Of a DNA stretch of 45,108 bases, positions 188 through 43,915 are shown in pieces (positions within the stretch are counted from its first letter, which is position 1; every line of letters begins with the position of its first letter). This stretch comes from a virus. Its lineage: Duplodnaviria > Caudoviricetes. The stretch covers positions 1 to 45,108 of the IMG/VR virus record IMGVR_UViG_3300012942_000014, one strand, 5' to 3'. A model generated the notes under the pieces. That model was not told where the DNA came from and did no database searches. It was given only the letters and a program-made list of their open reading frames with translations. Position numbers and translations under genes: made by a program.

Positions 188-526
188 TTATTTTTGCCTC
201 ACAATAAGATTTATAACGCCTAGATTACACTCTTGTATATCATCTACAGCTATATCCATCCGTGGTACAGTAGGGTCAAACTTAGCCAATGCTCTTACGA
301 AGGTCTTACCATACTTGTCTTGGTATTCCCTCATAACCTGCTCAGCATACTTCTGACCGCCTCCAGACCAGATATAGCAACGTATATTCTTGAACCTTGA
401 TAAGGTATGTGCTAGGTTGCAGACATCCTCATTCCAGACGATTCTAGAAGTATCACGATGAGCATACTTTCTTTTACTGCTCCTTAGCGTCCCATCTATA
501 TCGAATGCTACATTTATCTTGTCCAT
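188..526 (-). CDS. HAD-superfamily phosphatase, directly downstream of the tRNA array
   Basis: FDIDGTL motif I, WSGGG motif II, VDD motif IV; start at MDKIN after AAGGA RBS (the ORF-track upstream extension overlaps tRNA-Phe). Confidence 0.75.
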   Translation of the reverse strand: MDKINVAFDIDGTLRSSKRKYAHRDTSRIVWNEDVCNLAHTLSRFKNIRCYIWSGGGQKYAEQVMREYQDKYGKTFVRALAKFDPTVPRMDIAVDDIQECNLGVINLIVRQK

Positions 527-540
527 ATAATCCTTTCCTT

Positions 541-617
541 TGGTGTCCTCGGTAAGTTTCGAACTCACGACCTCCTGGGCTTCAACCAGGCGCTCTCACC
601 ATCTGAGCTACAAGGAC
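541..617 (-). tRNA. trnF: tRNA-Phe(GAA)
   Basis: Cloverleaf, anticodon arm CCTGG-TTGAAGC-CCAGG, encoded CCA. Confidence 0.95.
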
Positions 618-621
618 TAAT

Positions 622-711
622 TGGTGGTAGGACTGGGATTCGAACCCAGGGTGGCTTGCACCACTCTTGTTTTCAAGACAAGTGCACTCGGCCAGACTAT
701 GCGACCCTACC
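622..711 (-). tRNA. trnS: tRNA-Ser(TGA)
   Basis: CTTGT-CTTGAAA-ACAAG, long variable arm, CCA. Confidence 0.95.
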
Positions 712-714
712 TTA

Positions 715-789
715 TGGTTCCGGTGCTAGGACTCAAACCTAGATAACAAGGCTCAGAACCTTGCGTCCTATCAATTAGACGACTCCGGA
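715..789 (-). tRNA. trnQ: tRNA-Gln(CTG)
   Basis: CAAGG-TTCTGAG-CCTTG; T-loop TTTGAGT; CCA. Confidence 0.9.
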
Positions 790-793
790 TTAT

Positions 794-869
794 TGGTTCT
801 CAGGGAACGGTTCGAACGTTCGACATTCAGGTTCAAAGCCTGACGACTCTACCACTGGTCTACCTGAGA
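794..869 (-). tRNA. trnQ: tRNA-Gln(TTG)
   Basis: TCAGG-CTTTGAA-CCTGA; CCA. Confidence 0.92.
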
Positions 870-896
870 TTATTTTGTACGCCAGTGAAGCTGGCT

Positions 897-982
897 TGGA
901 GGAGGGCTACGGTACCGACCCGTATGGAGTGACCCACGTACACCTTAGCACGATGTCCTCAGACCTTCTGAGTTAACCCTCC
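897..982 (-). tRNA. trnS: tRNA-Ser(GCT), atypical T-loop
   Basis: ACATC-GTGCTAA-GGTGT, long variable region, T-arm TACGG-GTCGGTA-CCGTA, TCCA end. Confidence 0.8.
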
Positions 983-1188
983 AGGCTCTTTATACCTAGG
1001 AGTTCAAAGACTCTTCTGTGGTAGTCTCCCTTTCTCTTTGTTTCTCCAGTGTCTCTGTAGGTAAGGAGCACTGGAACTCCTGCTATGTCACATTTCCTGG
1101 TGAACTTTCCATCTACTATAGAACTAGATTTAATCCCGTAGATGGTACCAGCCATACCAAGTCCTCTGATGAGTACAATCTCCCACAT
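973..1188 (-). CDS. Hypothetical protein inserted in tRNA array
   Basis: 71-aa ORF with AGGGAGG RBS filling the gap between tRNA-Trp and tRNA-Ser. Confidence 0.55.
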   Translation of the reverse strand: MWEIVLIRGLGMAGTIYGIKSSSIVDGKFTRKCDIAGVPVLLTYRDTGETKRKGDYHRRVFELLGIKSLEG

Positions 1189-1257
1189 TTAACTGCAACC
1201 TCCCTTCTTATACAATATGCTTCCTTTCTAACCTAGACAGCTAGTCAGGCTAAGTCT

Positions 1258-1329
1258 TGGCAGACCTGGTAGGTAACGCTCCCACAGCTAGAGGGTTTGG
1301 AATCCTCCGCAGCACTTTGCCTCAAGTCC
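1258..1329 (-). tRNA. trnW: tRNA-Trp(CCA), short D-arm and atypical T-loop
   Basis: GAGGA-TTCCAAA-CCCTC; T-arm GTGGG-AGCGTTA-CCTAC; GCCA end. Confidence 0.8.
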
Positions 1330-1333
1330 GTAT

Positions 1334-1431
1334 TGGTGAATCCGTTGGGAGTCTAACCCAAACTCCATACCTCTTTTCACAAGCACAACCAGGTTACTTT
1401 GACTGTATGGAACTGCACAGTTATCGGACTC
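1334..1431 (-). ncRNA. 98-nt tRNA-like / mini-tmRNA (TLD-only)-like RNA
   Basis: Acceptor GAGTCCG/CGGATTC with G3.U70, ACCA end, T-arm TTGGG-TTAGACT-CCCAA, 8-bp stem TTCCATAC/GTATGGAG enclosing a 34-nt loop instead of a 7-nt anticodon loop. Confidence 0.7.
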
Positions 1432-1434
1432 ATA

Positions 1435-1509
1435 TGGTGGGTTCTGAAGGAATCGAACCTTCATGGATTGGTTAAGAGCCAACTATTCTAGCCGTTGAAC
1501 TAAGAACCC
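1435..1509 (-). tRNA. trnK: tRNA-Lys(CTT)
   Basis: GTTGG-CTCTTAA-CCAAT; CCA. Confidence 0.93.
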
Positions 1510-1737
1510 GTGATTACATTTGCCCACTGCTCTCGTAGTAAGGGCACAGTTGGTACAGTATATTCTTACATAGTTGCCGTACTTTACTGGTATGAAGAGG
1601 TCTAGCATCTCATCACAGCAGAAGCATCTAGGTCTACCATACTCGTTCTTATATTCGGCTATGAAGTTACGATTGAGTAACCCTGGCTTTACTATAACAC
1701 GTGCTGGTAGACTAGAACTATGTCTTATTATACTCAT
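1483..1737 (-). CDS. Small Zn-ribbon protein within tRNA array
   Basis: CFCC...CTNC motifs; AAGGA RBS just after the tRNA-Ala CCA; 3' end overlaps tRNA-Lys. Confidence 0.55.
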   Translation of the reverse strand: MSIIRHSSSLPARVIVKPGLLNRNFIAEYKNEYGRPRCFCCDEMLDLFIPVKYGNYVRIYCTNCALTTRAVGKCNHGFLVQRLE

Positions 1738-1747
1738 ACTTTCCTTT

Positions 1748-1822
1748 TGGTGGAGTAACAGTGAATCGAACACTGATGAATACCTTGCAAAGGTATCATA
1801 ATAACCGTTATATGATTACCCC
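1748..1822 (-). tRNA. trnA: tRNA-Ala(TGC)
   Basis: ATACC-TTTGCAA-GGTAT; G3.U70; CCA. Confidence 0.93.
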
Positions 1823-1827
1823 AATAT

Positions 1828-1903
1828 TGGTGACCGCGCCAGGCATTGAACCCGGTTCTCTACCTTGAGAGGGTAGTGTCCTAACCGTATAGACGATGCA
1901 GCC
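1828..1903 (-). tRNA. trnE: tRNA-Glu(CTC)
   Basis: CTACC-CTCTCAA-GGTAG; CCA. Confidence 0.92.
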
Positions 1904-1908
1904 ATGCT

Positions 1909-1982
1909 TGGTGCACACTGAGTGAGTCGAACACTCGACATCTGATTGGAAGTCAGATATTTTACCGCTAAACTAAGCGTGC
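1909..1982 (-). tRNA. trnG: tRNA-Gly(TCC)
   Basis: TCTGA-CTTCCAA-TCAGA; CCA. Confidence 0.93.
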
Positions 1983-1988
1983 ATGATT

Positions 1989-2064
1989 TGGTGCTACCCT
2001 TCGGATTCGAACCGAAACCTGAGGGCTTAGAACACCCTTGTACTATCCGTTATACTAAGGTAGC
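1989..2064 (-). tRNA. trnR: tRNA-Arg(TCT)
   Basis: AGGGT-GTTCTAA-GCCCT; CCA. Confidence 0.9.
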
Positions 2065-2068
2065 GTAT

Positions 2069-2146
2069 TGGTGGCCCCAGTAAGATTCGAACTTACACTT
2101 TACAGGGTTTAGGTCTGTTGCCTCTGCCTAATTGGGCTATAGGGCC
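2069..2146 (-). tRNA. trnL: tRNA-Leu(TAA), short variable arm, C33
   Basis: ACAGA-CCTAAAC-CCTGT; Leu-type D-loop GGCAGAGGC; CCA. Confidence 0.8.
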
Positions 2147-2220
2147 TGGAACCCCGAGAGGGAATCGAACCCTCGAAAGCAGTTTTGCGGGCTGCCGGGT
2201 AGCCATTCCCCATTCGAGGT
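2147..2220 (-). tRNA. trnC: tRNA-Cys(GCA), C33
   Basis: GCAGC-CCGCAAA-ACTGC; U73 discriminator; CCA. Confidence 0.85.
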
Positions 2221-2230
2221 ATATTATCTT

Positions 2231-2317
2231 TGGTACCGTTTGAGGGAATCGCACCCACTCGACCCAGGGGGACTTGTTTTACAGACAAGCGTGCCTTCTT
2301 TAACACATTAAAACGGC
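2231..2317 (-). tRNA. trnY: tRNA-Tyr(GTA)
   Basis: CTTGT-CTGTAAA-ACAAG; long variable region; atypical T-arm; CCA. Confidence 0.85.
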
Positions 2318-2319
2318 TC

Positions 2320-2396
2320 TGGTGCCTCCCGAGAGATTCGAACTCTCACTGACGTGGTTCTAAGCCACGGTCCTCTGCCAGTTGGGATAGAGAGGC
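2320..2396 (-). tRNA. trnL: tRNA-Leu(TAG), short variable arm
   Basis: CGTGG-CTTAGAA-CCACG; CCA. Confidence 0.9.
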
Positions 2397-2403
2397 ATAT
2401 TCT

Positions 2404-2480
2404 TGGTCAGAGTAGCAGGACTCGAACCTGCGTTCTCTATGTTCCAAACATAGCGGATTAACCAGCTTTCCTATACTCTG
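2404..2480 (-). tRNA. trnP: tRNA-Pro(TGG)
   Basis: CTATG-TTTGGAA-CATAG; C1-G72; CCA. Confidence 0.93.
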
Positions 2481-2482
2481 AT

Positions 2483-2557
2483 TGGTCCCCACGAGACGGC
2501 TCAAACGTCTGATACAGAGTCAACAGCTCTGCGTGTTATCAACTACACTACACGGGG
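2483..2557 (-). tRNA. trnN: tRNA-Asn(GTT), G37
   Basis: CAGAG-CTGTTGA-CTCTG; T-loop TTTGAGC; CCA. Confidence 0.85.
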
Positions 2558-2563
2558 TTGTTT

Positions 2564-2639
2564 TGGGGTGCCCAACTGGTATTGCGCCAGTGTCTCCTCC
2601 TTCACAGGGAGGCGTGGTGACTTCTCCACTATAGACACC
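2564..2639 (-). tRNA. trnH: tRNA-His(GTG)
   Basis: G-1:C73; CCTCC-CTGTGAA-GGAGG; T-loop CGCAATA. Confidence 0.88.
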
Positions 2640-2642
2640 ATA

Positions 2643-2717
2643 TGGTCCCGACAACCAGAATTGAACTGGTGACTTAAGCCTGACAAGCTAATGTTATAAC
2701 CACTTAACTATGCCGGG
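2643..2717 (-). tRNA. trnD: tRNA-Asp(GTC)
   Basis: TTAGC-TTGTCAG-GCTTA; CCA; A73. Confidence 0.85.
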
Positions 2718-2721
2718 TTAC

Positions 2722-2797
2722 TGGTGCTCACAGTCGGATTCAAACCGACGTTCCCATGGCTGAAAACCAAGTATCCTAATCACTAGATGATGTGAGC
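2722..2797 (-). tRNA. trnE: tRNA-Glu(TTC)
   Basis: CTTGG-TTTTCAG-CCATG; T-loop TTTGAAT; CCA. Confidence 0.88.
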
Positions 2798-2800
2798 GTT

Positions 2801-2874
2801 TGGAGCTGGATTAGGGTGCCGCCCCCTAGTCGGTAGTTTACAAAACTACTGCTCTACTGTTGAGCTAAACCAGC
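2801..2874 (-). tRNA. trnT: tRNA-Thr(TGT), atypical T-loop
   Basis: GTAGT-TTTGTAA-ACTAC; T-arm TAGGG-GGCGGCA-CCCTA; TCCA. Confidence 0.85.
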
Positions 2875-2883
2875 GAATATATT

Positions 2884-2958
2884 TGGTGTCTCGATAAGGA
2901 TTTGAACCTTAACTAATAGTTTCGAAGACTAGTGTGCTATCCATTACACTATCAAGAC
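2884..2958 (-). tRNA. trnR: tRNA-Arg(TCG)
   Basis: CTAGT-CTTCGAA-ACTAT; CCA. Confidence 0.9.
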
Positions 2959-2961
2959 TTA

Positions 2962-3037
2962 TGGTAGCACCTAAAGGATTCGAACCTTTGACCGCCTCTG
3001 TGTAAAAGAGGAACTCTAGCCACTGAGTTAAGGTGCT
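2962..3037 (-). tRNA. trnV: tRNA-Val(TAC)
   Basis: CCTCT-TTTACAC-AGAGG; CCA. Confidence 0.93.
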
Positions 3038-3040
3038 TCA

Positions 3041-3115
3041 TGGTAAGGGATAAAGGAGTTGAACCTTTGTTGGCACTGTATAAGAATGCTGTCCTAACCG
3101 TTGGACGAATCCCTA
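3041..3115 (-). tRNA. trnI: tRNA with TAT anticodon (Ile-UAU), U1xU72 mismatch
   Basis: GCATT-CTTATAC-AGTGC; acceptor TAGGGAT/ATCCCTT; CCA. Confidence 0.85.
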
Positions 3116-3119
3116 TTAT

Positions 3120-3193
3120 TGGTCGGCTACCAAGGTAATGCTCCTCGGCCTTCTGTGTATCGGACAGATGCTCTACTTTTAAGCTAGTAGCCG
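3120..3193 (-). tRNA. trnI: tRNA-Ile(GAT), C33, atypical T-loop
   Basis: TCTGT-CCGATAC-ACAGA; T-arm CGAGG-AGCATTA-CCTTG; CCA. Confidence 0.82.
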
Positions 3194-3196
3194 TTA

Positions 3197-3272
3197 TGGT
3201 GCACCCTGTAGGAGTTGAACCTACTCTGTACTGCTTAAAAGGCAGTTGCCTTGACCGTTCGGCATAGGATGC
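3197..3272 (-). tRNA. trnK: tRNA-Lys(TTT)
   Basis: ACTGC-CTTTTAA-GCAGT; CCA. Confidence 0.9.
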
Positions 3273-3278
3273 TAAACT

Positions 3279-3353
3279 TGGTTGCTCCCCCCAGAGTTGC
3301 ACTGGGTCCTGAACCTTATGAGGGTTCCGAGATTACTGATTCTCCAGGGAGCA
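3279..3353 (-). tRNA. trnM: tRNA-Met(CAT)
   Basis: GAACC-CTCATAA-GGTTC; T-loop TGCAACT; CCA; lacks the initiator GGG/CCC anticodon stem. Confidence 0.85.
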
Positions 3354-3384
3354 ATATAGGCCAGGTATCTCTACCTGACCTATT

Positions 3385-3412
3385 ATTGTACACACATTTA
3401 TACTGGTGTCAA
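3385..3412 (-). promoter_or_regulatory. Promoter of tRNA operon, followed by a strong hairpin (~3356-3383)
   Basis: TTGACA-16-TACAAT; then ATAGGTCAGGTA-GAGA-TACCTGGCCTAT before tRNA-Met. Confidence 0.7.
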
Positions 3413-15824: not shown

Positions 15825-16130
15825 TTAAATTAGTTCTGCTGTGTTATTAGGGTATGTAAGCATTACTGCCTCTTGTTCAAACTCATCCCTGAGACGAGCA
15901 CACACCCGTTTAATAGTGGTAGCACTCTCATCAGTAGCCACCTCAATCTTGAAGGACACCTCTTGAGTACCCCCCCAGTAACCACTTACTTTTGTGATAG
16001 TACACCCGTCGATGCCGAATTCTGATAGAACCCGGCCAACCGCACTAGGATACTCCCTAATACGCTTACGATTCTCTGTTGCACTCAAGACCGAGCGAAC
16101 AGAAGTTGCATTTATTGTAAATAATTTCAT
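15825..16130 (-). CDS. Small ferredoxin/PII-like-fold hypothetical protein
   Basis: GCTITKVSGYWGG..E.S..IEV...LRDEFEQEAVML pattern. Confidence 0.6.
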   Translation of the reverse strand: MKLFTINATSVRSVLSATENRKRIREYPSAVGRVLSEFGIDGCTITKVSGYWGGTQEVSFKIEVATDESATTIKRVCARLRDEFEQEAVMLTYPNNTAELI

Positions 16131-19850: not shown

Positions 19851-20082
19851 TGAGGACCTGATAATAAAGCCAGCACCAAGAGATGTGGCATTCTTCTCAT
19901 ATAGGGGATTAGCTTGCGCAGTTAACATCAATGACTGTACAATAGACCAGGTATTTGAGGATGCTAAGAAATCACTAAAAGCAGCAATGGAAAGAGAGGA
20001 GATTATAGATGACAGAAACCCCAACAAAACGGGGGAAGCGGTACGGCGAACGGACAAGAGACGGTCTAGTAAAAAAAGCTAA
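19780..20082 (+). CDS. Hypothetical protein (likely start MGLFKK)
   Basis: AAGGAG RBS before ATG at 19822. Confidence 0.5.
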   Translation: MKHQEMSYLHLRSLMGLFKKPKVNEDLIIKPAPRDVAFFSYRGLACAVNINDCTIDQVFEDAKKSLKAAMEREEIIDDRNPNKTGEAVRRTDKRRSSKKS

Positions 20083-20440
20083 CCAGTGGCAAGGCACTCT
20101 ACAGCAAGAGAAGTGGCTACTCTACTACTTAGACCCTAAGAGCCCTACATTCGGTAATGCCTATGGTTCAGCCTTAGAAGTCGGGTTCAGTGAAGCGTAC
20201 TCTAGGACGATTGCTAGACCGAGCAACTCACTACAGTGGGTGAAGGAAGCAAGGAATATTATTTCAATGAGACCTGAGCATATCGTTCAGAAGCTTCAGG
20301 AGTTCGCCCTCGATAATACACAGAAGAGTGAAGTACAACTACGAGCCCTAGAATTACTTGCTAAGACCCAAGGTATGTTCATAGATAGGAAGGTGGTAGC
20401 GCATGGTACGTTCGAAGAAGCGCTCAGAACACTTAAGTAG
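20009..20440 (+). CDS. terS: Terminase small subunit
   Basis: GNAYGSALEVGFSEAYS and LRALELLAKTQGMF motifs. Confidence 0.75.
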   Translation: MTETPTKRGKRYGERTRDGLVKKANQWQGTLQQEKWLLYYLDPKSPTFGNAYGSALEVGFSEAYSRTIARPSNSLQWVKEARNIISMRPEHIVQKLQEFALDNTQKSEVQLRALELLAKTQGMFIDRKVVAHGTFEEALRTLK

Positions 20441-20663
20441 TTTCTTAAAAGAGGCGAGGAAGAGATTCCCCAATACCTCCTGGAATGCCTATCAAGCAGA
20501 CAAGACTACGAATGAGGTATATGGCCCAGGATTCATCTTAGTAGGCAGGAGAGGCGTTCTAGAGAAAGAATACTTTATCCTTTATGAAGATAATAGACGA
20601 ATGCCCTGGGCAGCAATGATAAACGGACAAATAGACATGGAGTTGCATGGAAGAGTTCATTGA
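20403..20663 (+). CDS. Hypothetical protein
   Basis: ORF in operon. Confidence 0.45.
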   Translation: MVRSKKRSEHLSSFLKEARKRFPNTSWNAYQADKTTNEVYGPGFILVGRRGVLEKEYFILYEDNRRMPWAAMINGQIDMELHGRVH

Positions 20664-20985
20664 TAAAGAATACGAATTAAAGGTACGAGAATATATCGCT
20701 AAGATGCTATCTAACCGCAAGGGAAGACGAGCACTAGCGAAGAAGGATGGGAAGATTAAGGACTGGGATAGTATACAAAACTACTATGGGCCAATCAATA
20801 AACCACTTGATTTAGGTATCAACGCCTTTAAGAAGCTTGCTAGACAGAGACTTGACAAACCATACAAGTATGTGAAAAACTATAAAGAAGCAATGTACAA
20901 TGCATTAAAGGAGATTATTGATGGCAGTACCGACAACAGCACAACCAGTGCGGAGAGTGGTGAATCTAACACCGCCAGTAAGTGA
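20647..20985 (+). CDS. Hypothetical protein
   Basis: ORF in operon. Confidence 0.5.
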   Translation: MEEFIDKEYELKVREYIAKMLSNRKGRRALAKKDGKIKDWDSIQNYYGPINKPLDLGINAFKKLARQRLDKPYKYVKNYKEAMYNALKEIIDGSTDNSTTSAESGESNTASK

Positions 20986-21388
20986 GGAAAAAGCATTAGA
21001 GGTTAATGGATATCCTGACGGTAGAACAGTACCCGATGTAAAGCGTGATGAAATCATCGCCGAAGGGTATGACCTAGATAAGGCTACGGATTCAGGAGCA
21101 CTCTTTGCTAACGATTATCAGAAGCCTGTAGCAGTTACTGGCGTTACTCTAACTCCAGCTACAGCCTCAGTAGAAGTAGATGCTACAGTACAGCTTACTG
21201 CAACAGTAGCTCCAGATGACGCTTATGTCCAAGATGTGACATTCAGCTCATCAGATGAGACTAAAGCAACTGTTGATGCAACCGGTCTTGTAACCGGTGT
21301 AGCAGTCGGTAGCGCAACTGTAACGGTAACTACTGTCGATGGCGAGAAGACAGATACGACAGCTGTCACAGTAACTGCAGCAGAATAG
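20918..21388 (+). CDS. Bacterial Ig-like (Big_2) domain protein, likely virion decoration
   Basis: VTGVTLTP...VQLTATVAP...VTFSSSD..KATVDATGLVTGV..G.ATVTVTT. Confidence 0.85.
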   Translation: MMAVPTTAQPVRRVVNLTPPVSEEKALEVNGYPDGRTVPDVKRDEIIAEGYDLDKATDSGALFANDYQKPVAVTGVTLTPATASVEVDATVQLTATVAPDDAYVQDVTFSSSDETKATVDATGLVTGVAVGSATVTVTTVDGEKTDTTAVTVTAAE

Positions 21389-21424
21389 TCTTGACAATTC
21401 CTGGATTGTATGCTACACTGATAA

Positions 21425-21524
21425 GTGAATCCTACAAAAGCTCAGTGATTATATAGTGCCGACTATATATAGAGTCCAGAAATTGCAGGCAGTAGGAGCT
21501 CTCTAACGAGGGCTTCTATTTTTT
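21425..21524 (+). ncRNA. Candidate ~100-nt small RNA
   Basis: Own promoter TTGACA-17-TACACT (21391-21419), no ORF, intrinsic terminator 21493-21524. Confidence 0.55.
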
Positions 21525-21527
21525 GTG

Positions 21528-21556
21528 TTGACAAATTATCTCAATTGGTATATAGT
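21528..21556 (+). promoter_or_regulatory. Promoter for terminase-large/portal operon (leaderless first gene)
   Basis: TTGACA-17-TATAGT, ATG 6 nt downstream. Confidence 0.7.
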
Positions 21557-21562
21557 TATTCT

Positions 21563-21787
21563 ATGATTAAAAATAGACGAATGTTATATATCTGGGATGA
21601 GAATGCCGAGTTCTTCGATAGTCTCCCCAATAAATCAAAGTTAATCAATCTATTCATTCAAGAGAAGCGTAAAGAAGCTGGTGATGTAGTAGATAAAGGT
21701 GAAGAGTTCCAAAAACTAGTAGAGAGATTTGATGCAAGAGTCAAACCTAACAGAGAAACAACAAAGGCTACTACTAGAGATAGCTAA
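21563..21787 (+). CDS. Small hypothetical (possible ribbon-helix-helix) protein
   Basis: LYIWDEN...LPNKSKLINLFI pattern. Confidence 0.5.
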   Translation: MIKNRRMLYIWDENAEFFDSLPNKSKLINLFIQEKRKEAGDVVDKGEEFQKLVERFDARVKPNRETTKATTRDS

Positions 21788-23420
21788 GGACTTTGACCGT
21801 TTCCGAGAGAATAACCTCTGGATACGGGATAAAGATTCTAACATTGTGCCCTTTGTACCGAATATAGCGCAGAGGGCGCTTATTGACCGTGTCATGACCT
21901 GCCTGAGAGAGGGTAAACCAATTAGGATGATTATTCTAAAAGCTCGTCAGATGGGTCTATCAACAGCAGTAGAGGCTATCATTTACTGGTGGACATCAAC
22001 TAATCCAGAGGTAACGGCAAGCATTATCGCTCACCAGGAGGACGCTTCCAGAAACCTCTATAATATGTTCAAGAGGTATTATGATAATTCTAATATTCTA
22101 TTTAAACCTGCTCGTAAGTACGATACTCGTAGTGACATTAAGTTTGCTAGAGAAGACGACGATGGAAATCAAATCGGACTTAATTCTGTTATCAAGACTG
22201 CAACTGCTAAAAATACTGGTACTGGTCGGTCTGATACTATCAATCTTGTGCATGGTTCTGAGGTAGCTTTCTGGGACAATGGTGAGGAGCTTGTAGCTTC
22301 CCTTATGCAGACAGTACCGCATAGAGCTAATACAATGATATTCCTAGAGTCCACCGCTAACGGTAAAGGTAACTACTTTGCTAAGATGTGGGATGGAGCT
22401 GTTAAGGGCGATAATGACTATGAGCCGTTCTTCTTCCCTTGGTGGATTCAGGATGAGTATGAAATGGATGGCGATGATATCACCGAGTTTACCGTAGATG
22501 AAGAAGATATCATTGACTATATGCGAGAAGGTATTAAGGTAGGTAATGAATTTTATCAAGTACCTGAAGAGCGGATACAGGGCAAGATACGGTTCAGAAG
22601 GCATAAGGAACGAGAGTTCATGGCAACCCCTGAGAGACTCTTACAAGAGTATCCAAGTACTCCTCACGAAGCCTTCATTGCATCAGGTAGAAATGTCTTC
22701 AATACCAAGGCTCTTACTCACATGGAGAGAATGGTACGAGACACTGCGAAGTATGATATAGCCGATGACGACCAGAGAAATCCATATGTCACTGAGAATC
22801 CTTATGGTAATCTTAAAATCTGGGAGAAGCCTAAACCAGAAGATGAGTACGTTATTGGGGCCGATGTAGCGGAAGGTATAGAAGGTGGAGACTTCTGTGT
22901 AGCTGATGTTATTCGAGTAAAAGATTTAACTACCGTAGCCAAGTATAGAGGAAGAATCGACCCTGACCAGTTTGCACACATCATGGACAAGCTAGGGAGA
23001 TACTACAACTTTGCCCTACTTGGCCCTGAGGTAAATAACCATGGACTAGCTGTGGTACAGCGATTAAGGGATTTATTCTATCCTAACATTTATAAAAGAG
23101 AATCTGGATTAGATGAAGTATTTGAAACACCTACAGCAAAGTTTGGTTGGAAGACCACAGCAATCACCAAACCTCTGTCCATCGACTATCTGGCCGAAGC
23201 TGTCCGAGAAGGAATTGTTAAAGACCCAGACATTGTATTCGTTAAGGAAGCATTTTCATATGTCAGAGATGAACGTGGAAGAACAAATGCAGAACAAGGC
23301 GAGCATGACGATACGGTGATGGCTAAGGCTATAGCCTTGCAATTATTCGACTGGTCTGCTAATAATAAGAAGGACTTAAAAGTATACAAACCATCAAGGG
23401 ATAGAAAGCGTAGAAAGTAA
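21729..23420 (+). CDS. terL: Terminase large subunit
   Basis: ILKARQMGLST Walker A, HGSEVAFW, LESTANG, IGADVAEG, HDDTVMA. Confidence 0.95.
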   Translation: MMQESNLTEKQQRLLLEIAKDFDRFRENNLWIRDKDSNIVPFVPNIAQRALIDRVMTCLREGKPIRMIILKARQMGLSTAVEAIIYWWTSTNPEVTASIIAHQEDASRNLYNMFKRYYDNSNILFKPARKYDTRSDIKFAREDDDGNQIGLNSVIKTATAKNTGTGRSDTINLVHGSEVAFWDNGEELVASLMQTVPHRANTMIFLESTANGKGNYFAKMWDGAVKGDNDYEPFFFPWWIQDEYEMDGDDITEFTVDEEDIIDYMREGIKVGNEFYQVPEERIQGKIRFRRHKEREFMATPERLLQEYPSTPHEAFIASGRNVFNTKALTHMERMVRDTAKYDIADDDQRNPYVTENPYGNLKIWEKPKPEDEYVIGADVAEGIEGGDFCVADVIRVKDLTTVAKYRGRIDPDQFAHIMDKLGRYYNFALLGPEVNNHGLAVVQRLRDLFYPNIYKRESGLDEVFETPTAKFGWKTTAITKPLSIDYLAEAVREGIVKDPDIVFVKEAFSYVRDERGRTNAEQGEHDDTVMAKAIALQLFDWSANNKKDLKVYKPSRDRKRRK

Positions 23421-23424
23421 CTAG

Positions 23425-25230
23425 ATGAATGAAAATGACTTAGCTCCTAAGCTAACCGAAGTCGATAATGAGAACACCGAAGACAGGACTCATGATGAAG
23501 ATGTCGTTAGGCTAGTTGCTGCTGACTTTAAACAGTCGAGAGAGTATATTAAAAAACATTACACAGATGTCTGGGATAGATGCTGGAAGTGTTATAACTC
23601 AATGCGAACTGAGCATGGCTATGATGGTGTAGCCGACGACTTTGTCCCTGAGACCTTTACAATTGTGGAGTCTGTTAAGGCTAACATTGCTGGTGGTAAA
23701 CCAAAGTTCAACTACCTCCCTACTAAGGAAGAGCAGGAGTCCGATACTAAAGTTATCAACTCAATGATTGACTTCTTCTGGGACCAGAACAATATGACCG
23801 AGAAGGTCCAGCAATGGGTACAGGATATGCTCGTCCTGGGTAACGGTATCATGATGGTGTCTTGGGAGGGTGATATGCCTCATATCTCTAATATCCCATT
23901 ATCAGACTTCTTTGTTGACCCAACTGCTACTCATATGAACAAGCCCGGGACACCTGGTTATCCTAAGTATGCTGGCTATAGATTCCTCTCTACGATAGAC
24001 GAACTTAAGAACCGCAAGATTGTCAACCCAAGTACTGGTGAGATGACAGAGTTCTATAAGAACCTTGATGATATTGCTGAAACTAACCGTGAAGCTCCAG
24101 GCAAACCAGATGATGAGAAGACCGATAAAGAAACCAAGGAACTATTACTAGGAACTACTCTTGGAGATAAGGCAAGGGAGAAGCAAGTAGAGGTAATAGT
24201 TTACTATACTCGTAAGAAGAAGATTGTCGTTGTTAACAGACAAGTCCTCATCTACGAAGGTGATAACCCTTACAAGCGAGCTAAGAGCTCTAAGAAGGTA
24301 ACCCACCTTATTGACGGTGTACCAAGAGAAACCACTGTTGATATCCCTGAGATTAAAGGTTTCTTACCATTTGCAATTCTGAGGAATTATGTTGATACTA
24401 GCCTATTCTATGCTAAGGGAGACGTAGAGGTTATCCTTCCTAGACAGGAACGATTAAACGATATTTCATCTCAGAAGTCAGACGCTATTACCTATGCGCT
24501 ATCTCCTATGTGGCAGATTGACCCACAGTACAAGCACTTAGCAGAACAGATTGAATCATTCCCTGGAGCAGTATTACCACTTCCACAGGGTGCCATCTCA
24601 ACCTTTGAGAGACAGGATATCTCAACATCAGCAGACAACGAGATGTACCGTATTAAGGAAGAGATGCGCAGAGCTACTGCAGCTGATGAGGTTGTACAGG
24701 GTGTATCTCAGGATAAGGGGCGTATTACGGCTACTGAGATTCAGGCACAGATGAACCAGGCTTCTCAGCGGTTCTCCACAAAGCTTACTAACCTTGAAGA
24801 TGAAGGATATGCACAGCTTGGTAGAATCCTCTTCAAGATGGTACAAATCTTTGTTGACCAGAAGATGGCAGTTCGTATCGTGGGGCCTGATGGTGTCCAA
24901 TGGAAAGATTACGACCCTAGTGAATATTATGGTGATTATGAGCCTAAGGTTCAATTAGAGAGCACCACAAAGTCTGTTAAGGCCGAAGAAGGGCAGAAAT
25001 ATGCCCTTATCCATCAGATGTTTGCTCAGTCTCCGTATATTAACCAACAGGAGTTTGCAAGACTTTATCTAGAGACGATGCTTGATGTGTCAGAAGATAA
25101 GATTAAGGCACTTCTTACAACTCCTAAACAGAACCCTAATCCACCTATGGCTCCGCCTGCACCACAGCCAGCAGTACAGAATCCAAATGGTGTAGCTGCA
25201 GGACCATTACCAACGCCACAGGGTATGTAA
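23425..25230 (+). CDS. Portal protein
   Basis: 601 aa after TerL; DFFVDP, TATEI, P22/podovirus-type portal features. Confidence 0.9.
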   Translation: MNENDLAPKLTEVDNENTEDRTHDEDVVRLVAADFKQSREYIKKHYTDVWDRCWKCYNSMRTEHGYDGVADDFVPETFTIVESVKANIAGGKPKFNYLPTKEEQESDTKVINSMIDFFWDQNNMTEKVQQWVQDMLVLGNGIMMVSWEGDMPHISNIPLSDFFVDPTATHMNKPGTPGYPKYAGYRFLSTIDELKNRKIVNPSTGEMTEFYKNLDDIAETNREAPGKPDDEKTDKETKELLLGTTLGDKAREKQVEVIVYYTRKKKIVVVNRQVLIYEGDNPYKRAKSSKKVTHLIDGVPRETTVDIPEIKGFLPFAILRNYVDTSLFYAKGDVEVILPRQERLNDISSQKSDAITYALSPMWQIDPQYKHLAEQIESFPGAVLPLPQGAISTFERQDISTSADNEMYRIKEEMRRATAADEVVQGVSQDKGRITATEIQAQMNQASQRFSTKLTNLEDEGYAQLGRILFKMVQIFVDQKMAVRIVGPDGVQWKDYDPSEYYGDYEPKVQLESTTKSVKAEEGQKYALIHQMFAQSPYINQQEFARLYLETMLDVSEDKIKALLTTPKQNPNPPMAPPAPQPAVQNPNGVAAGPLPTPQGM

Positions 25231-25268
25231 CCCAACTTTTAACCTAAAGTCGCTCACAGAGCCTCTAA

Positions 25269-25610
25269 ATGGCCTTAGAACGCAAAATAGAAGGAGCTAT
25301 CATGCCTAAAAAGCAAGTAGAAGAACAGAATGACCTACAAGAGCGTATTGTCGCTCAGTGGAAGGCATTTGCTAGAACAGATGCCTATAAGGACTGGATA
25401 AAGTCCATGGATGAGTATATGTCACTTATCCAGGATAATGTCGATAATATGACAGAAAGCCGTCCAACTGGATTTAAGGAGGTCTTCGGGAGGTTAACAC
25501 CTCAGATGGCTAAGGCTCCTATAGACCCAGTACAGGCAGCATTAATGAATCAGCGTAAGGTCGGTGTGCGATTTTGTACAGAATATGCCAAATTACGTGT
25601 TGACAGCTAG
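25269..25610 (+). CDS. Hypothetical protein between portal and scaffold
   Basis: AAGGAG RBS before MPKK (25302). Confidence 0.6.
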   Translation: MALERKIEGAIMPKKQVEEQNDLQERIVAQWKAFARTDAYKDWIKSMDEYMSLIQDNVDNMTESRPTGFKEVFGRLTPQMAKAPIDPVQAALMNQRKVGVRFCTEYAKLRVDS

Positions 25611-25676
25611 TTTAATATATGGTATAAACAGAGGTGAGCATAACGCTCATAAGCATTTTAACAATTAGGAGTATCC

Positions 25677-26459
25677 ATGGCGGAACAAACAGCCCCTACT
25701 GAGGATACTGTCGTCGATAATACTGGCGTAGAAGATTCTACCCTACCAGTAGATGATAGTAGCGAAAACTCAGCGGTTGAAGAACATGAAGATACTGAGC
25801 AACCAGACCAAGACTCAGATTCTCAAGATTCAACTGAAGAAGAGAAAGATAATGGTCTAGCCAAATTCGCTAAGAGTCAAGGGTTCGACCCGGACAACCT
25901 TACAGATGGTGAGAAGAAAGCCCTTAAGATTGCACAAGACAATCAGAGAGCCCTTCGCCAGCGTATGGAAGCCTCTAAGCCAAGTGAAATCGAGAAAAGC
26001 ATCAAGGGTGTTGATTCATCCAGCGATATGTCAGACCGAGAGTACACTGACTTCAGACTCAATCAGCAGAACATGGTTCTTAACGTAAGGCAGTACTGGG
26101 CAGAGAATCCAGATGACAGGCAGTACGAGAAGGAGGCAGTAGCTATCCTTCAAAAAGAGAAAGAACTATATGGCGACGCAGCACAGATGAGACTAGCACA
26201 GGATATGCCTAGACTAGTACGAGAAGCAAAGTTTGCTGCTGGGGCTTTCGATGAGAAAGCTATCGTTGCAAAAGCTCAAAAAGAAGAAAGAGAGCGCCTA
26301 AAGAAGGAACAAGAAGGTGGTGCAGACAGCCTAAACGCTACTCAACCATCGTCTACAAGTTCAAAGAATATGCAGGAATGGATTAGAGACGAATATGACC
26401 CCTCTAACCCTGAACACCGAGCAAAGGTGGATGCATACCTGAACAATGCTTATAAGTAA
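25677..26459 (+). CDS. Capsid scaffolding protein
   Basis: Acidic N-terminus, helical, directly before MCP; promoter TTGACA-17-TATAAA at 25600-25628. Confidence 0.7.
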   Translation: MAEQTAPTEDTVVDNTGVEDSTLPVDDSSENSAVEEHEDTEQPDQDSDSQDSTEEEKDNGLAKFAKSQGFDPDNLTDGEKKALKIAQDNQRALRQRMEASKPSEIEKSIKGVDSSSDMSDREYTDFRLNQQNMVLNVRQYWAENPDDRQYEKEAVAILQKEKELYGDAAQMRLAQDMPRLVREAKFAAGAFDEKAIVAKAQKEERERLKKEQEGGADSLNATQPSSTSSKNMQEWIRDEYDPSNPEHRAKVDAYLNNAYK

Positions 26460-26489
26460 CATTGATTAACTTATAAGGAAACTAATTAA

Positions 26490-27344
26490 ATGGCAACATT
26501 TTCAATGAACACACCTGCCAATACTGCTGAAGTAATTCCAGAGGTGTGGGCTAAGGAAATCCTTGAGAACCGTCGTAACCGTCTCGTTATGGAGCAACTG
26601 GTTAACCACGACTACCAAGGACAAATCAAAAACTTCGGTGACACAGTTCACATTATCTCACTACCAGACCTAACTGCACAGACAATTACTCCTGGTACAG
26701 AAATGACTGTTACTCCAGTTGACCCAACTGAGCAGCTACTTGTTATCGACCAATATGAGGGTACACCTGTAGAAATCCAGGACATGCTTGTTAAGCAGTC
26801 TACCTACGACCTACGACGACCATTCACTGAGAAGATTGGGTTCTCTCTAGCTGATGCTATTGACAACTATCTTCTAGGTATTACGGTAGCTGGTGCAGCT
26901 TCAGGAAACAAACTAACAGCAGTGGCAAACCTAAACAAAGCAACTCTTATCGCAGCACATGCTAAACTAGATGCAGCAAACGTTCCAGCAGATGGACGAG
27001 CTCTAGTTGTCAACGGATTTGGTGTAGCAGACCTACGTTCAGATTCAGACATGACATGGGCAGAGCGACAGGGAAGTGGCGACCTAGCTGGTAAGGGTTA
27101 CGCAGGAACTATCTACAATACTCCTGTATACGTAACAAATCAGGTTGCTAAAATTGATTCAAACGCTAACTGGGGATTTGTACTCTTCCATAAGTCAGCT
27201 GTGACTTGTGCTGTACAGATTGAGCCAGAAGTTGAGTCTCAACGCCGAGTTCTTAGCAAGTCAACTATCATCGCAGGGTCAACACTATTCGGTGGAAAGG
27301 TTGTACGACCAGACCACATTGTAGTTATCCCTCGAACTGTGTAG
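26490..27344 (+). CDS. Major capsid protein (HK97 fold)
   Basis: IPEVWAKEIL, GDTVHI, LDAANVP..GR, FHKSA, FGGKVVRP. Confidence 0.9.
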   Translation: MATFSMNTPANTAEVIPEVWAKEILENRRNRLVMEQLVNHDYQGQIKNFGDTVHIISLPDLTAQTITPGTEMTVTPVDPTEQLLVIDQYEGTPVEIQDMLVKQSTYDLRRPFTEKIGFSLADAIDNYLLGITVAGAASGNKLTAVANLNKATLIAAHAKLDAANVPADGRALVVNGFGVADLRSDSDMTWAERQGSGDLAGKGYAGTIYNTPVYVTNQVAKIDSNANWGFVLFHKSAVTCAVQIEPEVESQRRVLSKSTIIAGSTLFGGKVVRPDHIVVIPRTV

Positions 27345-27363
27345 TTTGACCGATAAGGAGATT

Positions 27364-27392
27364 AAAGGTTTCGCACTTGCGGAGCCTTTTTT
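27364..27392 (+). terminator. Rho-independent terminator after MCP
   Basis: AAAGGTTTCGC-ACTT-GCGGAGCCTTT + T-run. Confidence 0.8.
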
Positions 27393-27434
27393 CTTGTGGT
27401 ATAATAACCAGGAAATCTAATAAGGAGAATAATT

Positions 27435-27959
27435 ATAGCTGCTACTTTCGTCTTCCAGGAGGATAATGGAGCTGCAACAGGAACCCCAGCTAAAGGCACA
27501 ACTCGTGCTAACGCTACACAGGTTAACTGGAAGTCAGTAGATGATATCTCTACACTTCCAACAGCTGCCCCTATCGTCTATGGAACCAACTCATTCACTA
27601 AATACCAGTTCGGTAAGTTTACTGGAACCTTTAATCAGATTAGTTCTGTTAAGTGGTCACATACAGCAGGAACTCTAGGAACTGGATTAACACTTAAGGG
27701 GGTTGTTACTAGTACGTATGCCACTCCTTCACAGACTACCAATGCTGCTCTAACTACAGATATGACCGCTATTACTCCTATTGCTTCTGGTGCTTCTGTA
27801 AATCTATCTACTACAGGACCAGAGGGAGCTAGCCCTACTGCGACACTATCAGCAGCTGGTTATACTCAGTATCTAGCCACTCAGTTACAGACAACAACAT
27901 CAACAGCTCCTGGTAACACGGCAACAGTAACACTCACTCTCCAGTATCAGGAGAACTAA
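27435..27959 (+). CDS. 174-aa virion structural protein with ATA start codon
   Basis: AAGGAG-7nt-ATA GCT GCT ACT TTC; open and in frame with the track ORF 27762-27959; no ATG/GTG/TTG in the first 109 codons. Confidence 0.75.
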   Translation: MAATFVFQEDNGAATGTPAKGTTRANATQVNWKSVDDISTLPTAAPIVYGTNSFTKYQFGKFTGTFNQISSVKWSHTAGTLGTGLTLKGVVTSTYATPSQTTNAALTTDMTAITPIASGASVNLSTTGPEGASPTATLSAAGYTQYLATQLQTTTSTAPGNTATVTLTLQYQEN

Positions 27960-27978
27960 GATAGGAGGAACCAATACA

Positions 27979-28371
27979 ATGGTTTTATGGGAAGCGTTCT
28001 TCAATGACGGACATAGTATACAGCAGCCTGCCGATGATAGGTATTCTAAGCATGACGACTCGTCAGGATATAATCCTAGTGCCTTCAGAGATATACAGGA
28101 CTATGAAAAGAAAGCAGCCCTAACCATATTTATCCTAGGAGACGTACAGGTTAGTTTATCAGAAGGATTCTTTATCATTAACGGAGTACCTGTATTCCTA
28201 GAAGATGAACCATTGACAGATAGGAAGCTAATATACTATCGTGTAATGGAGACTTCCTGGACAGATGGATTACAAACAGAACCTAAGATACTGAAGTATG
28301 CCGTAGGTTATGAAGGTAAAAACTCTAAAGGTAAAGTAGAAAAGAAAGTAATTTATATAGATGGCGAATAA
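27979..28371 (+). CDS. Hypothetical protein
   Basis: AGGAGG RBS, 130 aa. Confidence 0.7.
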   Translation: MVLWEAFFNDGHSIQQPADDRYSKHDDSSGYNPSAFRDIQDYEKKAALTIFILGDVQVSLSEGFFIINGVPVFLEDEPLTDRKLIYYRVMETSWTDGLQTEPKILKYAVGYEGKNSKGKVEKKVIYIDGE

Positions 28372-29710
28372 TATTAAAGACTTTGCAGCTGGTATAGTCT
28401 TAACAGCACCTAGTCCAAATACATCTGGGACTTCACTCACTCTCCAGTCGGGTCAGGGTGACTATATGCCTGACGTTCCTTTCTATGCGACCGCCTGCCC
28501 TCCAGGACAACTTACCAACCTTGGCAATTCAGAGAAGATATTAGTAACTGCTTTATCCGGTGATACAATCACCTTCGAGAGGGCACAGGGTGATACTACA
28601 GCTAAGTCTATAGACGCCGGCTGGGTCATCGCTAATGCTATGTATGCTGATGATGTGATGAAGAGCAATCTTGTTACAGATGAGCTCCTAGATGGTAATG
28701 TGGATGGATTTAACGTAGGCTTCACGACCGCAATTCCATTTACAGCCATTCAGGTATACAAGAACGGTGTAGCAATGCATCTAGGAGATGACTTTACTAT
28801 CTCTGGCGATAAAAGTATATTATTCGTAACAGCACCAAAGTCGGGTTCTAAGATAACCGCTACCTATATAGCTGGTTCTTCAGTGATGATAAACGGAAGC
28901 TCTAGTCAGGTCTTTGATGAAACACCATCTGGGACAGTAGATGGGACTAATAAAGTCTTTACTACTGCTAAACCATACGTACCAGGTAGTCTTCAGGTCT
29001 TTATAAATGGAGTTAAACAGAAGAGAGTAACTCACTTTACAGAGACATCTCCAACAGACGGTACTTTCACAATGTCTGATGCACCATTATCAAGCACTAC
29101 ACCAGACGATGTTATGGTTAATTATCAGTTCATAGTAAGTGTTGGGGGAAATGCTGATACGGTAGATGGATATCACGCTAATGACACACCAACTGCAAAC
29201 AATGTACCAGTGTTAAACTCTAACGCCCAGACTGGAGAATGGTGGGAAGAAATAGGCCGGACTACGCTTACTTCTAATAACGCTACCCTATCGGTATCAT
29301 TCCCTGCATATAAGTACCTTCAGGTTCATGTTCTGATATCAGGAACACAAACCTCAACCAGCTCAATACTTCTACAGTTCAACAATGATACGGCGAATAA
29401 CTATGGATATACCGCCACATCTGCTGGTACATATGGAACTGCAGCGCCCACTGGTTATATAGGACTAACGAGTAGTTCCTCTGGATGGCTGTCCGTATAC
29501 CAAATGGTTCTTGACATAGAAGTAGTGTCAGGCAGGGCGACAAACCTAACCGGAACAGTAACTGGTTCAGCACTGACTCCTGGTATTCCATACCAGCGTA
29601 CAATCACCGGTATGTGGACCGGCACATCTATCACGTCTATAAAGGTATTCGATAATGGAGGGGCGATATTAAATAGTGGCTCGGAGATAATAGTAAAGGG
29701 ACATAACTAA
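28361..29710 (+). CDS. Tail fibre / receptor-binding protein
   Basis: TFERAQGDTTA N-domain, two G.VDG.N..FT repeats, NADTVDGYHA. Confidence 0.75.
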   Translation: MANNIKDFAAGIVLTAPSPNTSGTSLTLQSGQGDYMPDVPFYATACPPGQLTNLGNSEKILVTALSGDTITFERAQGDTTAKSIDAGWVIANAMYADDVMKSNLVTDELLDGNVDGFNVGFTTAIPFTAIQVYKNGVAMHLGDDFTISGDKSILFVTAPKSGSKITATYIAGSSVMINGSSSQVFDETPSGTVDGTNKVFTTAKPYVPGSLQVFINGVKQKRVTHFTETSPTDGTFTMSDAPLSSTTPDDVMVNYQFIVSVGGNADTVDGYHANDTPTANNVPVLNSNAQTGEWWEEIGRTTLTSNNATLSVSFPAYKYLQVHVLISGTQTSTSSILLQFNNDTANNYGYTATSAGTYGTAAPTGYIGLTSSSSGWLSVYQMVLDIEVVSGRATNLTGTVTGSALTPGIPYQRTITGMWTGTSITSIKVFDNGGAILNSGSEIIVKGHN

Positions 29711-30060
29711 TGAGTAATCAGAAGATAAATCAAGCACAAATACAGAACCAACAGGGATGGCAATCTCCAACATTAGCAAATGGATGGATATATTATGGTG
29801 CACCATTTCACACACCAGGATACATGAAAGATACACTAGGATTCGTACACCTAGCGGGGCTCGTAAAGAATGGTGTCGTTGGTTACAATGTCTTTACTCT
29901 TCCTACAGGATATAGACCAGGTAGTACAATTGGGTTCGCTACCTACTGTAGCACTGGAATCGCATCGGTGTATATAGACAGCGGAGGAAATGTGACGTTC
30001 CCATCGGGGGCTAATGGCTTCGTATTCCTGGACGGTATAACATTCATGGCGGGGCAATAA
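29710..30060 (+). CDS. Small tail-fibre tip-like protein
   Basis: WQSPTLANGW...VHLAGLVK...FTLPTGYRP. Confidence 0.7.
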   Translation: MSNQKINQAQIQNQQGWQSPTLANGWIYYGAPFHTPGYMKDTLGFVHLAGLVKNGVVGYNVFTLPTGYRPGSTIGFATYCSTGIASVYIDSGGNVTFPSGANGFVFLDGITFMAGQ

Positions 30061-30062
30061 TA

Positions 30063-30434
30063 ATGGCAGAGACTAAGATAACATTCGATGAAATAGCAGA
30101 TGATTATTCTGCTAATGAAGTCAATACATGGAGAAGATGGATTGATGGTACCTACATTTATAAGAAGACAGTTGATGTCGGTACGCTACCGAACAATACG
30201 ATAAAACAGATTCCTCATGGGATTACTAGTCTAGGGCGTATCATAAGTGCCAGCGGTGCGGCTCAGCCAGCAGATAAGAGCCAAATTATTCCACTACCTT
30301 ATACTAATGGTGGAAATATAAATTACGGTGTATCGTTAGCGCTCGACGCATCGAACATTACCCTTGAAGCCAAATATGACCGAAGTGGCATGACAGGGTT
30401 TGTAACTGTCTACTACACGAAACTGGGGGGGTGA
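30063..30434 (+). CDS. Small tail-fibre tip-like protein
   Basis: WIDGTYIYKKT..G.LPN...VYYTK. Confidence 0.7.
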   Translation: MAETKITFDEIADDYSANEVNTWRRWIDGTYIYKKTVDVGTLPNNTIKQIPHGITSLGRIISASGAAQPADKSQIIPLPYTNGGNINYGVSLALDASNITLEAKYDRSGMTGFVTVYYTKLGG

Positions 30435-30721: not shown

Positions 30722-30751
30722 TCGTGAATACAATCACACTGAGACAATACA

Positions 30752-35198: not shown

Positions 35199-35199
35199 C

Positions 35200-37052: not shown

Positions 37053-37107
37053 TTGACCTATTGATATGGATATGATATAGTAACCTGGAATACATAGAGG
37101 AATTTAA

Positions 37108-37791: not shown

Positions 37792-37799
37792 GAGGCTTC

Positions 37800-42986: not shown

Positions 42987-43020
42987 CAGACCCACAAATA
43001 AAGGTTAGAATAGATTAGAT

Positions 43021-43905: not shown

Positions 43906-43915
43906 GAAAAACACT

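Follow-up and report, generated by a model that had tools for sequence, protein, structure and literature searches.

Viral tRNA gene clusters have been defined as groups of at least 15 tRNA genes at a density of at least 2 per kb; in the survey behind this definition (2017 data), cluster-bearing genomes measure 72 to 617 kb and 8 of 228 clusters cover 20 isotypes (Morgado and Vicente 2019, PMC6409571). The array described here is located in a 45,108-nt stretch from a Caudoviricetes virus (IMG/VR record IMGVR_UViG_3300012942_000014, positions 1 to 45,108, the whole stretch being referred to as the window) and comprises 27 tRNA genes on the minus strand between 541 and 3353, each with a terminal CCA and together covering all 20 amino acids. 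The array spans 2,813 nt (~9.6 tRNAs per kb, 6.3% of the genome) and lies above both thresholds, in count (27, or 22 at the default score of ARAGORN) and in density, in a genome of 45 kb against the survey minimum of 72 kb. An earlier reading made from the letters without database searches (the sequence-only reading) had considered arrays of this size usual in much larger phages. A full tRNA set can thus fit in 6% of a 45-kb genome, below that bound, and such sets are also found in likely Saccharibacteria phages.

The anticodon logic of the array is already known from T5 and from larger phages of the same likely host; its unusual traits are the small genome, the host group and a purge of the codon UUG that can be controlled with sister phages. 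As the sequence-only reading had described, the eight four-codon boxes have one U34 tRNA each (uridine at position 34), with no G34 or C34 partner, and all 20 amino acids are covered as in the superwobble sets of Mycoplasma and mitochondria. The design is not unique, because T5 (NC_005859, 24000-40000; 24 annotated tRNAs) follows the same logic, seven of its four-codon boxes having a single U34 tRNA and Arg having none in that region. Other shared elements are the pair Gln UUG and CUG, interspersed small open reading frames (ORFs) and tRNA-like stable RNAs. T5 differs in its genome of 121 kb, in having a dedicated formylmethionine (fMet) tRNA as well as Ile2(CAU) and Ser-GGA, and in a tRNA region that extends over ~9 kb and has several promoters.

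The reason for tRNA genes in phages has long been debated, and most tests compare phage with host. For vibriophage 2.275.O (Yang et al. 2021) and Shigella phage Sf14 it has been argued, under a model of host tRNA depletion, that the late genes are the ones best matched to the phage tRNA pool (PMC12482277). These phages are far larger than the window phage and infect Gammaproteobacteria; the window phage, known here from sequence alone, differs from them in having tRNA-poor sister phages as a control and one codon nearly purged. A second tRNA-encoding phage of a Patescibacteria-type host is Patesciphage RSA-ATP1, which has four tRNAs including a UGA suppressor (PMC13059738), compared with a full standard-code set in the window. 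In the literature covered, mainly open-access, no full tRNA set was found described in a phage below 50 kb or in a Saccharibacteria phage.

The explanation that we favour, with moderate confidence, is that the array would be an elongator set that takes over decoding late in infection, when host tRNAs are depleted or inactivated. One transcript would start at the promoter at 3412-3385 and be processed by RNase P and 3' nucleases of the host, the CCA being encoded, and host synthetases would charge the phage tRNAs. Single U34 tRNAs would read whole four-codon boxes, because the likely host class seems to lack the enzymes for uridine-5-oxyacetic acid (cmo5U): CmoB was above cut-off in none of 26 host-class genomes, TrhO/TrhP not being searched for. 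The C34 copies would read the G-ending codons of Gln, Lys and Glu, and UUG, with no C34 reader in the array, would be selected out of the late genes; initiation, charging and processing would remain host-dependent. Such a replacement pool was already proposed in the sequence-only reading and is supported by the late UUG purge, by the anticodon set common to array-bearing relatives and by the avoidance of TrmD, TilS and TadA substrates.

The plus-strand structural arm was taken as late and the minus-strand arm as early/middle, the timing being deduced from gene function. UUG represents 8 of 511 Leu codons (1.6%) in the structural arm and 29 of 310 (9.4%) in the minus-strand arm (p=3e-7), and 6.6-12.8% in the orthologous late genes of all eight relatives (each p<=3.3e-4). 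Out-of-frame TTG is found 174 times for 179 expected in one frame and is as low as in the relatives in the other; the loss is therefore in-frame only and a codon effect, and avoidance of a DNA motif is ruled out as its cause. The window array has no Leu-CAA, and UUG is the codon lacking a C34 reader here; the arrays of the larger related phages G017, G018 and G019 contain Leu-CAA and their UUG use is 11%. After UUG, depletion is strongest for CGC and CGU, which rely on U34 wobble by one tRNA; these two, CAA and AAA fall below the range of all 8 relatives, and AGA, CUA, CAG and AAG above it. Of the 9 genomes compared, none has late-minus-early log-odds as extreme as those of the window for UUG/UUA (-1.55), AGG/AGA (-0.87) and AGA/CGN (+0.74). 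G017, without the CUC and CUG anticodons, has GAG and CAG shares of 0.30 and 0.24, compared with 0.53 and 0.64 in the window. The late genes are thus adapted to the phage tRNA pool, with a codon-specific signal. Ile-UAU was discarded as the driver of AUA use, since relatives without this tRNA span 12-48%.

Array-poor sister phages, with 70% identical terminase, isolate the effect of the array, which is the near-loss of one late codon that can be read by the host class and not by the phage set, and with this purge the replacement model can be tested one codon at a time. The Leu-CAA pattern was identified in 60 of 61 host-class genomes (none with the reversed-pattern control), and if this host tRNA were still working late the purge would be hard to explain. 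This point bears on supplementation, in which host tRNAs persist, the phage tRNAs increase the supply of a tiny cell with few tRNAs, and late codons drift to these now abundant tRNAs. The most enriched late codons (AGA, CUA, CAG, GAG and AAG) are exact matches of array anticodons, each tRNA gene occurs once in the two host-class genomes examined and no nuclease was found among 23 unknown phage ORFs, all as supplementation would have it, but all 20 amino acids would not be needed, the UUG loss is sixfold and late-specific, and a global test of Watson-Crick-matched versus unmatched codons was null (p=0.99). We consider supplementation unlikely, although the sequence-only reading went too far in setting the array apart from codon-bias supplementation, codon use being strongly coupled to the tRNA set.

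The host is probably a member of Saccharibacteria, judging from protein homology. The LysM-CHAP gene upstream of the array has its closest named homologs in this group, and in a GTDB scan the labels of the top matches listed were mostly Saccharibacteria or Saccharimonadales. Two Saccharimonadia genomes (G011 and G012) contain 41 and 39 tRNAs, with G34, U34 and C34 readers, three CAU tRNAs and long-armed Leu tRNAs. Their CGN box is read by Arg-GCG and Arg-UCG, with no ACG and no inosine, and the uncommon Arg-UCG of the phage mirrors the one of the host class. Both genomes have U73 in tRNA-Lys and A73 in tRNA-Gly. The host class seems to make Asn-tRNA via GatCAB: GatB was identified in 26 of 26 genomes and AsnRS above cut-off in none of 31. 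GATC is totally absent from the window, G001 and G002 (213-301 copies expected), and some of the three are in addition poor in CGCG, GGCC and CCGG, which points to host restriction systems.

The G37 of tRNAs with G36 is a TrmD substrate, Ile-UAU avoids TilS and Arg-UCG avoids TadA. The array avoids the substrates of the three enzymes by means of A37, Ile-UAU and Arg-UCG; A37 was identified in its 6 tRNAs with G36, compared with G37 in 19 of 19 host G36 tRNAs, and also in 15 of 17 from G016-G019. TrmD was found in 29 of 31 host-class genomes, TilS in 56 of 61 and MnmA in 59 of 61. The Pfam family of TadA (strong matches in 6 of 41 genomes) is not specific, and G011 and G012 lack Arg-ACG. For the C34 copies of Gln, Lys and Glu, a role in reading G-ending codons is a better explanation than the escape from missing thiolation suggested earlier, because the hosts have MnmA and mostly no MnmG (present in 12 of 41), and 2-thiouridine (s2U) alone favours A-ending codons. 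The array offers a naturally occurring template for a tRNA kit that is minimal and light in modifications. The short variable arm of its Leu tRNAs was ruled out as a special feature, since such tRNAs are common in viral contigs, with an estimated ~560 stretches matching the pattern.

The 27 genes and their anticodons, as given in the sequence-only reading, were borne out by ARAGORN and Rfam. At default score 22 of the 27 were recovered, Glu-UUC, Thr-UGU and Ile-GAU being called only at ps90-95 and Ser-GCU and Trp-CCA only at ps85, and RF00005 matched 23. In 200 dinucleotide shuffles of the array region there were 70 matches at ps85, none of them CCA-ending. The stems are intact: 4 mismatches occur among the 189 pairs of the acceptor stems and 6 among the 135 pairs of the anticodon stems. 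The promoter reported upstream was confirmed and its type occurs at 7 places in the genome; the single operon is only plausible, as suggested by intergenic gaps of 0-27 nt in 23 of 26 cases, and no minus-strand terminator was found in 1-5000.

Identity elements were compared by the generally accepted rules. They are kept in His (G-1/C73), Ala (G3.U70), Cys (U73), Arg (A20), Gln (U1-A72), Pro and Trp. Bacterial GatCAB recognises U1-A72, which is present in both Gln tRNAs and absent from the Asn tRNA. The only CAU tRNA, tRNA-Met, has the initiator-lineage marks U1-A72 and A11-U24 together with C30-G40 and C31-G39, and its homologs in G016, G017 and G019 keep G30-C40; lacking the anticodon-stem G-C pairs of an initiator, it would leave initiation likely dependent on host fMet. 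No synthetase and no clear initiator tRNA were identified in the phage and the Asn tRNA is without the usual identity elements, so that the set was overstated as self-sufficient. Some array tRNAs may be charged poorly.

Such deviations (Asn, Asp, Gln and Ser), the five genes under the default score of ARAGORN, a slightly low AA/TT dinucleotide and eight relatives that replicate with 0-3 tRNAs would also fit a cargo that was acquired recently and is partly in decay; mutation bias or an unusual host would then account for the shift in codons. We regard this as quite improbable, given the few stem mismatches, the CCA in all 27 genes, the elements kept in His, Ala, Cys, Arg and Gln, and a UUG loss that is frame-specific and late-specific.

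The eight relatives (41-46 kb, terminase identity 53-73%) have 0-3 credible tRNAs each, two low-scoring opposite-strand matches and one doubtful Ile-like match being set aside, which indicates that the array is not needed by the phage family as a whole. In the unrooted terminase-portal-capsid tree the window is nested among these array-poor relatives; the topology fits a single array gain and would also be compatible with repeated loss. Homologous arrays are carried by larger phages that share some genes with the window (G017, G018 and G019, fragments 30-69% complete). Their anticodon sets, whose comparison the sequence-only reading had called for, are not of a random, incomplete kind, with 25 of the 27 anticodons in G017 and 24 in G019, and the blocks Lys-Ile-Ile-Val and Arg-Thr are found in both the window and G017. 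The tRNA set thus appears conserved wherever arrays exist among these relatives. Identity with the larger-phage copies is mostly 55-75%, reaching 84% for Lys-UUU and Tyr, and between the window and G017, 190 of 391 stem pairs are changed on both sides and 13 broken, counts biased by the gene-calling mode. The array was probably gained from, or has common ancestry with, those of larger (~85-kb) phages of the same host group.

In the nearest relatives the one tRNA kept is Trp-CCA, which lies at the site of the array, behind the LysM-CHAP gene, in G001 (38684-38757), G002 (17565-17638) and L220-L222. Genes for tRNA-Pro(UGG) that are unusual or duplicated and have an A37 loop were seen repeatedly, in G017 (10953-11026), G019 (1535-1608), G016 (11011-11084), G088 (14314-14390), G089 (24949-25255) and G090 (32104-32177), and persist even in phages keeping few other tRNAs. 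The G017 array (L380 ~8360-8500, 11890-12045 and 12525-12700) has more long structured or CCA-ending inserts between its tRNA genes. Window 1542-1772 and 2621-2829 are matched without a difference by two contigs, of 231 nt and 209 nt, that come from separate other runs, and one 675-nt contig joins Ser, Ser and Trp-like pieces; close copies of the array would therefore exist elsewhere.

Several observations weigh against a late takeover by the array. The null global test counts here as well, and in comparison with 7 of 8 relatives NAU is increased over NAC, although G34 tRNAs would favour the reverse. The excess of G-ending codons for Gln, Lys and Glu is not unique, since CAG and GAG are about as frequent in G087 and G090, which lack the corresponding tRNAs, and the window is somewhat lower in AA/TT and higher in AG than the relatives. 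PADLOC and NCBIfam identified no tRNA nuclease or defence family among 23 unknown ORFs. Phages commonly have A37 in their tRNAs with G36 (104 of 191 such tRNAs from other viral loci and 4 of 5 from T5), identity positions deviate in Asn (C1-G72, G37, A73, hence without U1-A72 and G73) and in Asp, both Gln and both Ser (without G73), and non-canonical T loops are present in 10 of 27 array tRNAs and in 5 of 79 host ones. Finally, a single genome of the family bears the array, which makes it a single event.

The RNA at 1334-1431 is probably a diverged copy of a tag-less mini-tmRNA, that is, a transfer-messenger RNA (tmRNA) consisting of the tRNA-like domain (TLD-only), as its predicted fold suggests. 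This type is known from mycobacteriophage DS6A and is reported to inhibit tmRNA (PMC4131195, PMC11915505). Like the DS6A type, the RNA has G3.U70, A73, CCA and a T arm joined to a P2-like helix, with no anticodon arm and no tag frame; unlike it, it has lost the 5' GGGG, the D-loop GAC and the GAC before the T arm, and in the absence of these conserved marks it is classed only as a probable derivative and not as a member. A P2-containing model (R2) matches it end-to-end with 18 of 18 pairs kept (23.6 bits, E ~0.001), a score below that of the array's own tRNA-Ala, and a first model built without P2 gives 12.9 bits. The tmRNA-like fold is 0.9 kcal/mol above the minimum-energy fold, and there was no Rfam match at E<=1 and no nhmmer match in the fetched loci. 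Clear TLD-only RNAs were identified in G016, G017 (in both directly before tRNA-Trp), G088, G089 and G090 (3 of the 8 close relatives) and in L225. Such RNAs, 62-101 nt long, recur in phages: a pattern made for them matches 23 viral stretches, and compensatory changes are seen at 13 of the 18 pairs of the consensus. Sites are L380 10797-10869, L378 10199-10269, L225 7733-7833, L483 5427-5509, L479 14093-14174, L486 12479-12561 and L502-L524.

The HAD (haloacid dehalogenase) protein adjoining the array has a predicted structure resembling PNKP phosphatase domains (template-modelling (TM) score 0.73-0.74), and its homologs occur in tRNA-free phage loci too. A probable TLD-only tmRNA and an end-healing-like phosphatase in the putative tRNA operon, along with many altered loops and T arms, would suit decoys, RNAs whose main role is to titrate anticodon nucleases of the host or defence proteins that bind tRNAs. 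Altered phage tRNA loops have been described as an escape from anticodon nucleases, in a study that found no codon-usage signal (van den Berg et al. 2023, PMC10264068). The window loops likewise differ from those of the host (17 of 26 comparisons differ from both host references; host versus host, 3 of 35); unlike that system, the window shows a codon-usage signal, and for its host neither a nuclease nor a cut site is known. Decoys should resemble host substrates and would not drive a codon-specific purge of UUG, and we see hardly any probability in them as the main function.

The product of the ORF at 15825-16130 is likely a S-adenosylmethionine (SAM) lyase. It matches Pfam PF23780 with 28.8 bits (cut-off 28), and its single-sequence structural model (predicted local distance difference test, pLDDT, 75) has its best query TM-score among the PDB matches listed with the T3 SAM lyase (8bb1; 0.66, rank 16 by E-value), ribosomal protein S6 folds ranking above it by E-value. 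A PDB sequence search gave repeat-protein noise only. In the relatives, the lyase was found in none of 5 in a search where the control was also silent; in the other 4 searched, where the window itself was detected, there was one weak match. With such an enzyme, SAM-independent tRNAs could be useful. A more speculative proposal, to which we give little credence, is that the phage would swap the decoding of an ultra-small candidate phyla radiation (CPR) cell: the lyase would drain SAM, crippling host tRNAs dependent on 1-methylguanosine at position 37 (m1G37), the long-arm Leu-CAA and others would be lost, the tag-less tmRNA would jam trans-translation, and late proteins would be made on a 27-tRNA code needing no TrmD, TilS or TadA, with UUG near unassigned. 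If true, this would be a natural genome-scale step toward codon compression. A scan of GTDB genomes for exonucleases confirmed none of 25 candidates.

Table 1. Coordinates of the tRNA array and associated elements in the window.
Feature	Position	Strand	Remarks
Sigma-70-type promoter TTGACA-16-TACAAT	3385..3412	-	11/12 match; overlaps LysM-CHAP stop codon
6-bp hairpin, presumed 5' leader	3362..3377	-	
tRNA-Met(CAU)	3279..3353	-	likely elongator; U1-A72, A11-U24, no G30-C40/G31-C39
tRNA-Lys(UUU)	3197..3272	-	G017 copy 84% identical
tRNA-Ile(GAU)	3120..3193	-	C33; same loop in G017
tRNA-Ile(UAU)	3041..3115	-	expected to read AUA without TilS
tRNA-Val(UAC)	2962..3037	-	
tRNA-Arg(UCG)	2884..2958	-	A37, A20
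tRNA-Thr(UGU)	2801..2874	-	
tRNA-Glu(UUC)	2722..2797	-	
tRNA-Asp(GUC)	2643..2717	-	A73; G73 in hosts
tRNA-His(GUG)	2564..2639	-	G-1, C73, A37
tRNA-Asn(GUU)	2483..2557	-	atypical: C1-G72, G37, A73
tRNA-Pro(UGG)	2404..2480	-	A37
tRNA-Leu(UAG)	2320..2396	-	variable loop of 5 nt, A37
tRNA-Tyr(GUA)	2231..2317	-	G018 copy 84% identical
tRNA-Cys(GCA)	2147..2220	-	U73, C33
tRNA-Leu(UAA)	2069..2146	-	variable loop of 5 nt, C33; sole candidate UUG reader in array
tRNA-Arg(UCU)	1989..2064	-	G32, also in G017-G019
tRNA-Gly(UCC)	1909..1982	-	
tRNA-Glu(CUC)	1828..1903	-	
tRNA-Ala(UGC)	1748..1822	-	G3.U70
Small ORF, up to 96 aa	1483..1773	-	two Cys pairs; overlaps adjoining tRNA ends; no family matched
tRNA-Lys(CUU)	1435..1509	-	
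28th CCA-ending RNA, 98 nt	1334..1431	-	probably diverged tag-less (TLD-only) tmRNA
tRNA-Trp(CCA)	1258..1329	-	G73; short D loop
Small ORF, 71 aa	973..1188	-	no family matched
tRNA-Ser(GCU)	897..982	-	U73
tRNA-Gln(UUG)	794..869	-	U1-A72, A37
tRNA-Gln(CUG)	715..789	-	U1-A72, A37
tRNA-Ser(UGA)	622..711	-	
tRNA-Phe(GAA)	541..617	-	
HAD-fold phosphatase, 112 aa, DIDGT motif	188..526	-	adjoins tRNA-Phe; last gene of the putative operon
Likely SAM lyase	15825..16130	-	outside array; possible functional link
Structural/lysis arm	20009..44104	+	UUG nearly eliminated

The contig has a 119-nt terminal repeat and its record is classed as direct-terminal-repeat, 100% complete; the genome is therefore circular and complete, at 44,989 bp. 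The gene content includes terminase, SU10-type portal and adaptor, and capsid; no integrase was found among the matches for 60 ORFs scanned. There is no close relative among cultured phages (best capsid identity <=33%), and among the 20 matches listed for the array against them only single tRNAs were matched, with 4-5% query coverage. The circular junction (44100-45108 plus 1-180) is long and mostly non-coding, with sigma-70-type promoters at 178 and 44393, a hairpin plus T run close to 44260-44290 and, at 44679-44721, 43 nt with 81% identity in G001-G003. A glutamine amidotransferase, a 499-aa protein without family match and a gamma-glutamyl cyclotransferase are grouped in window 11117-13999 and conserved in G001 and G002, a trio that we take to resemble phage amidoligase gene clusters.

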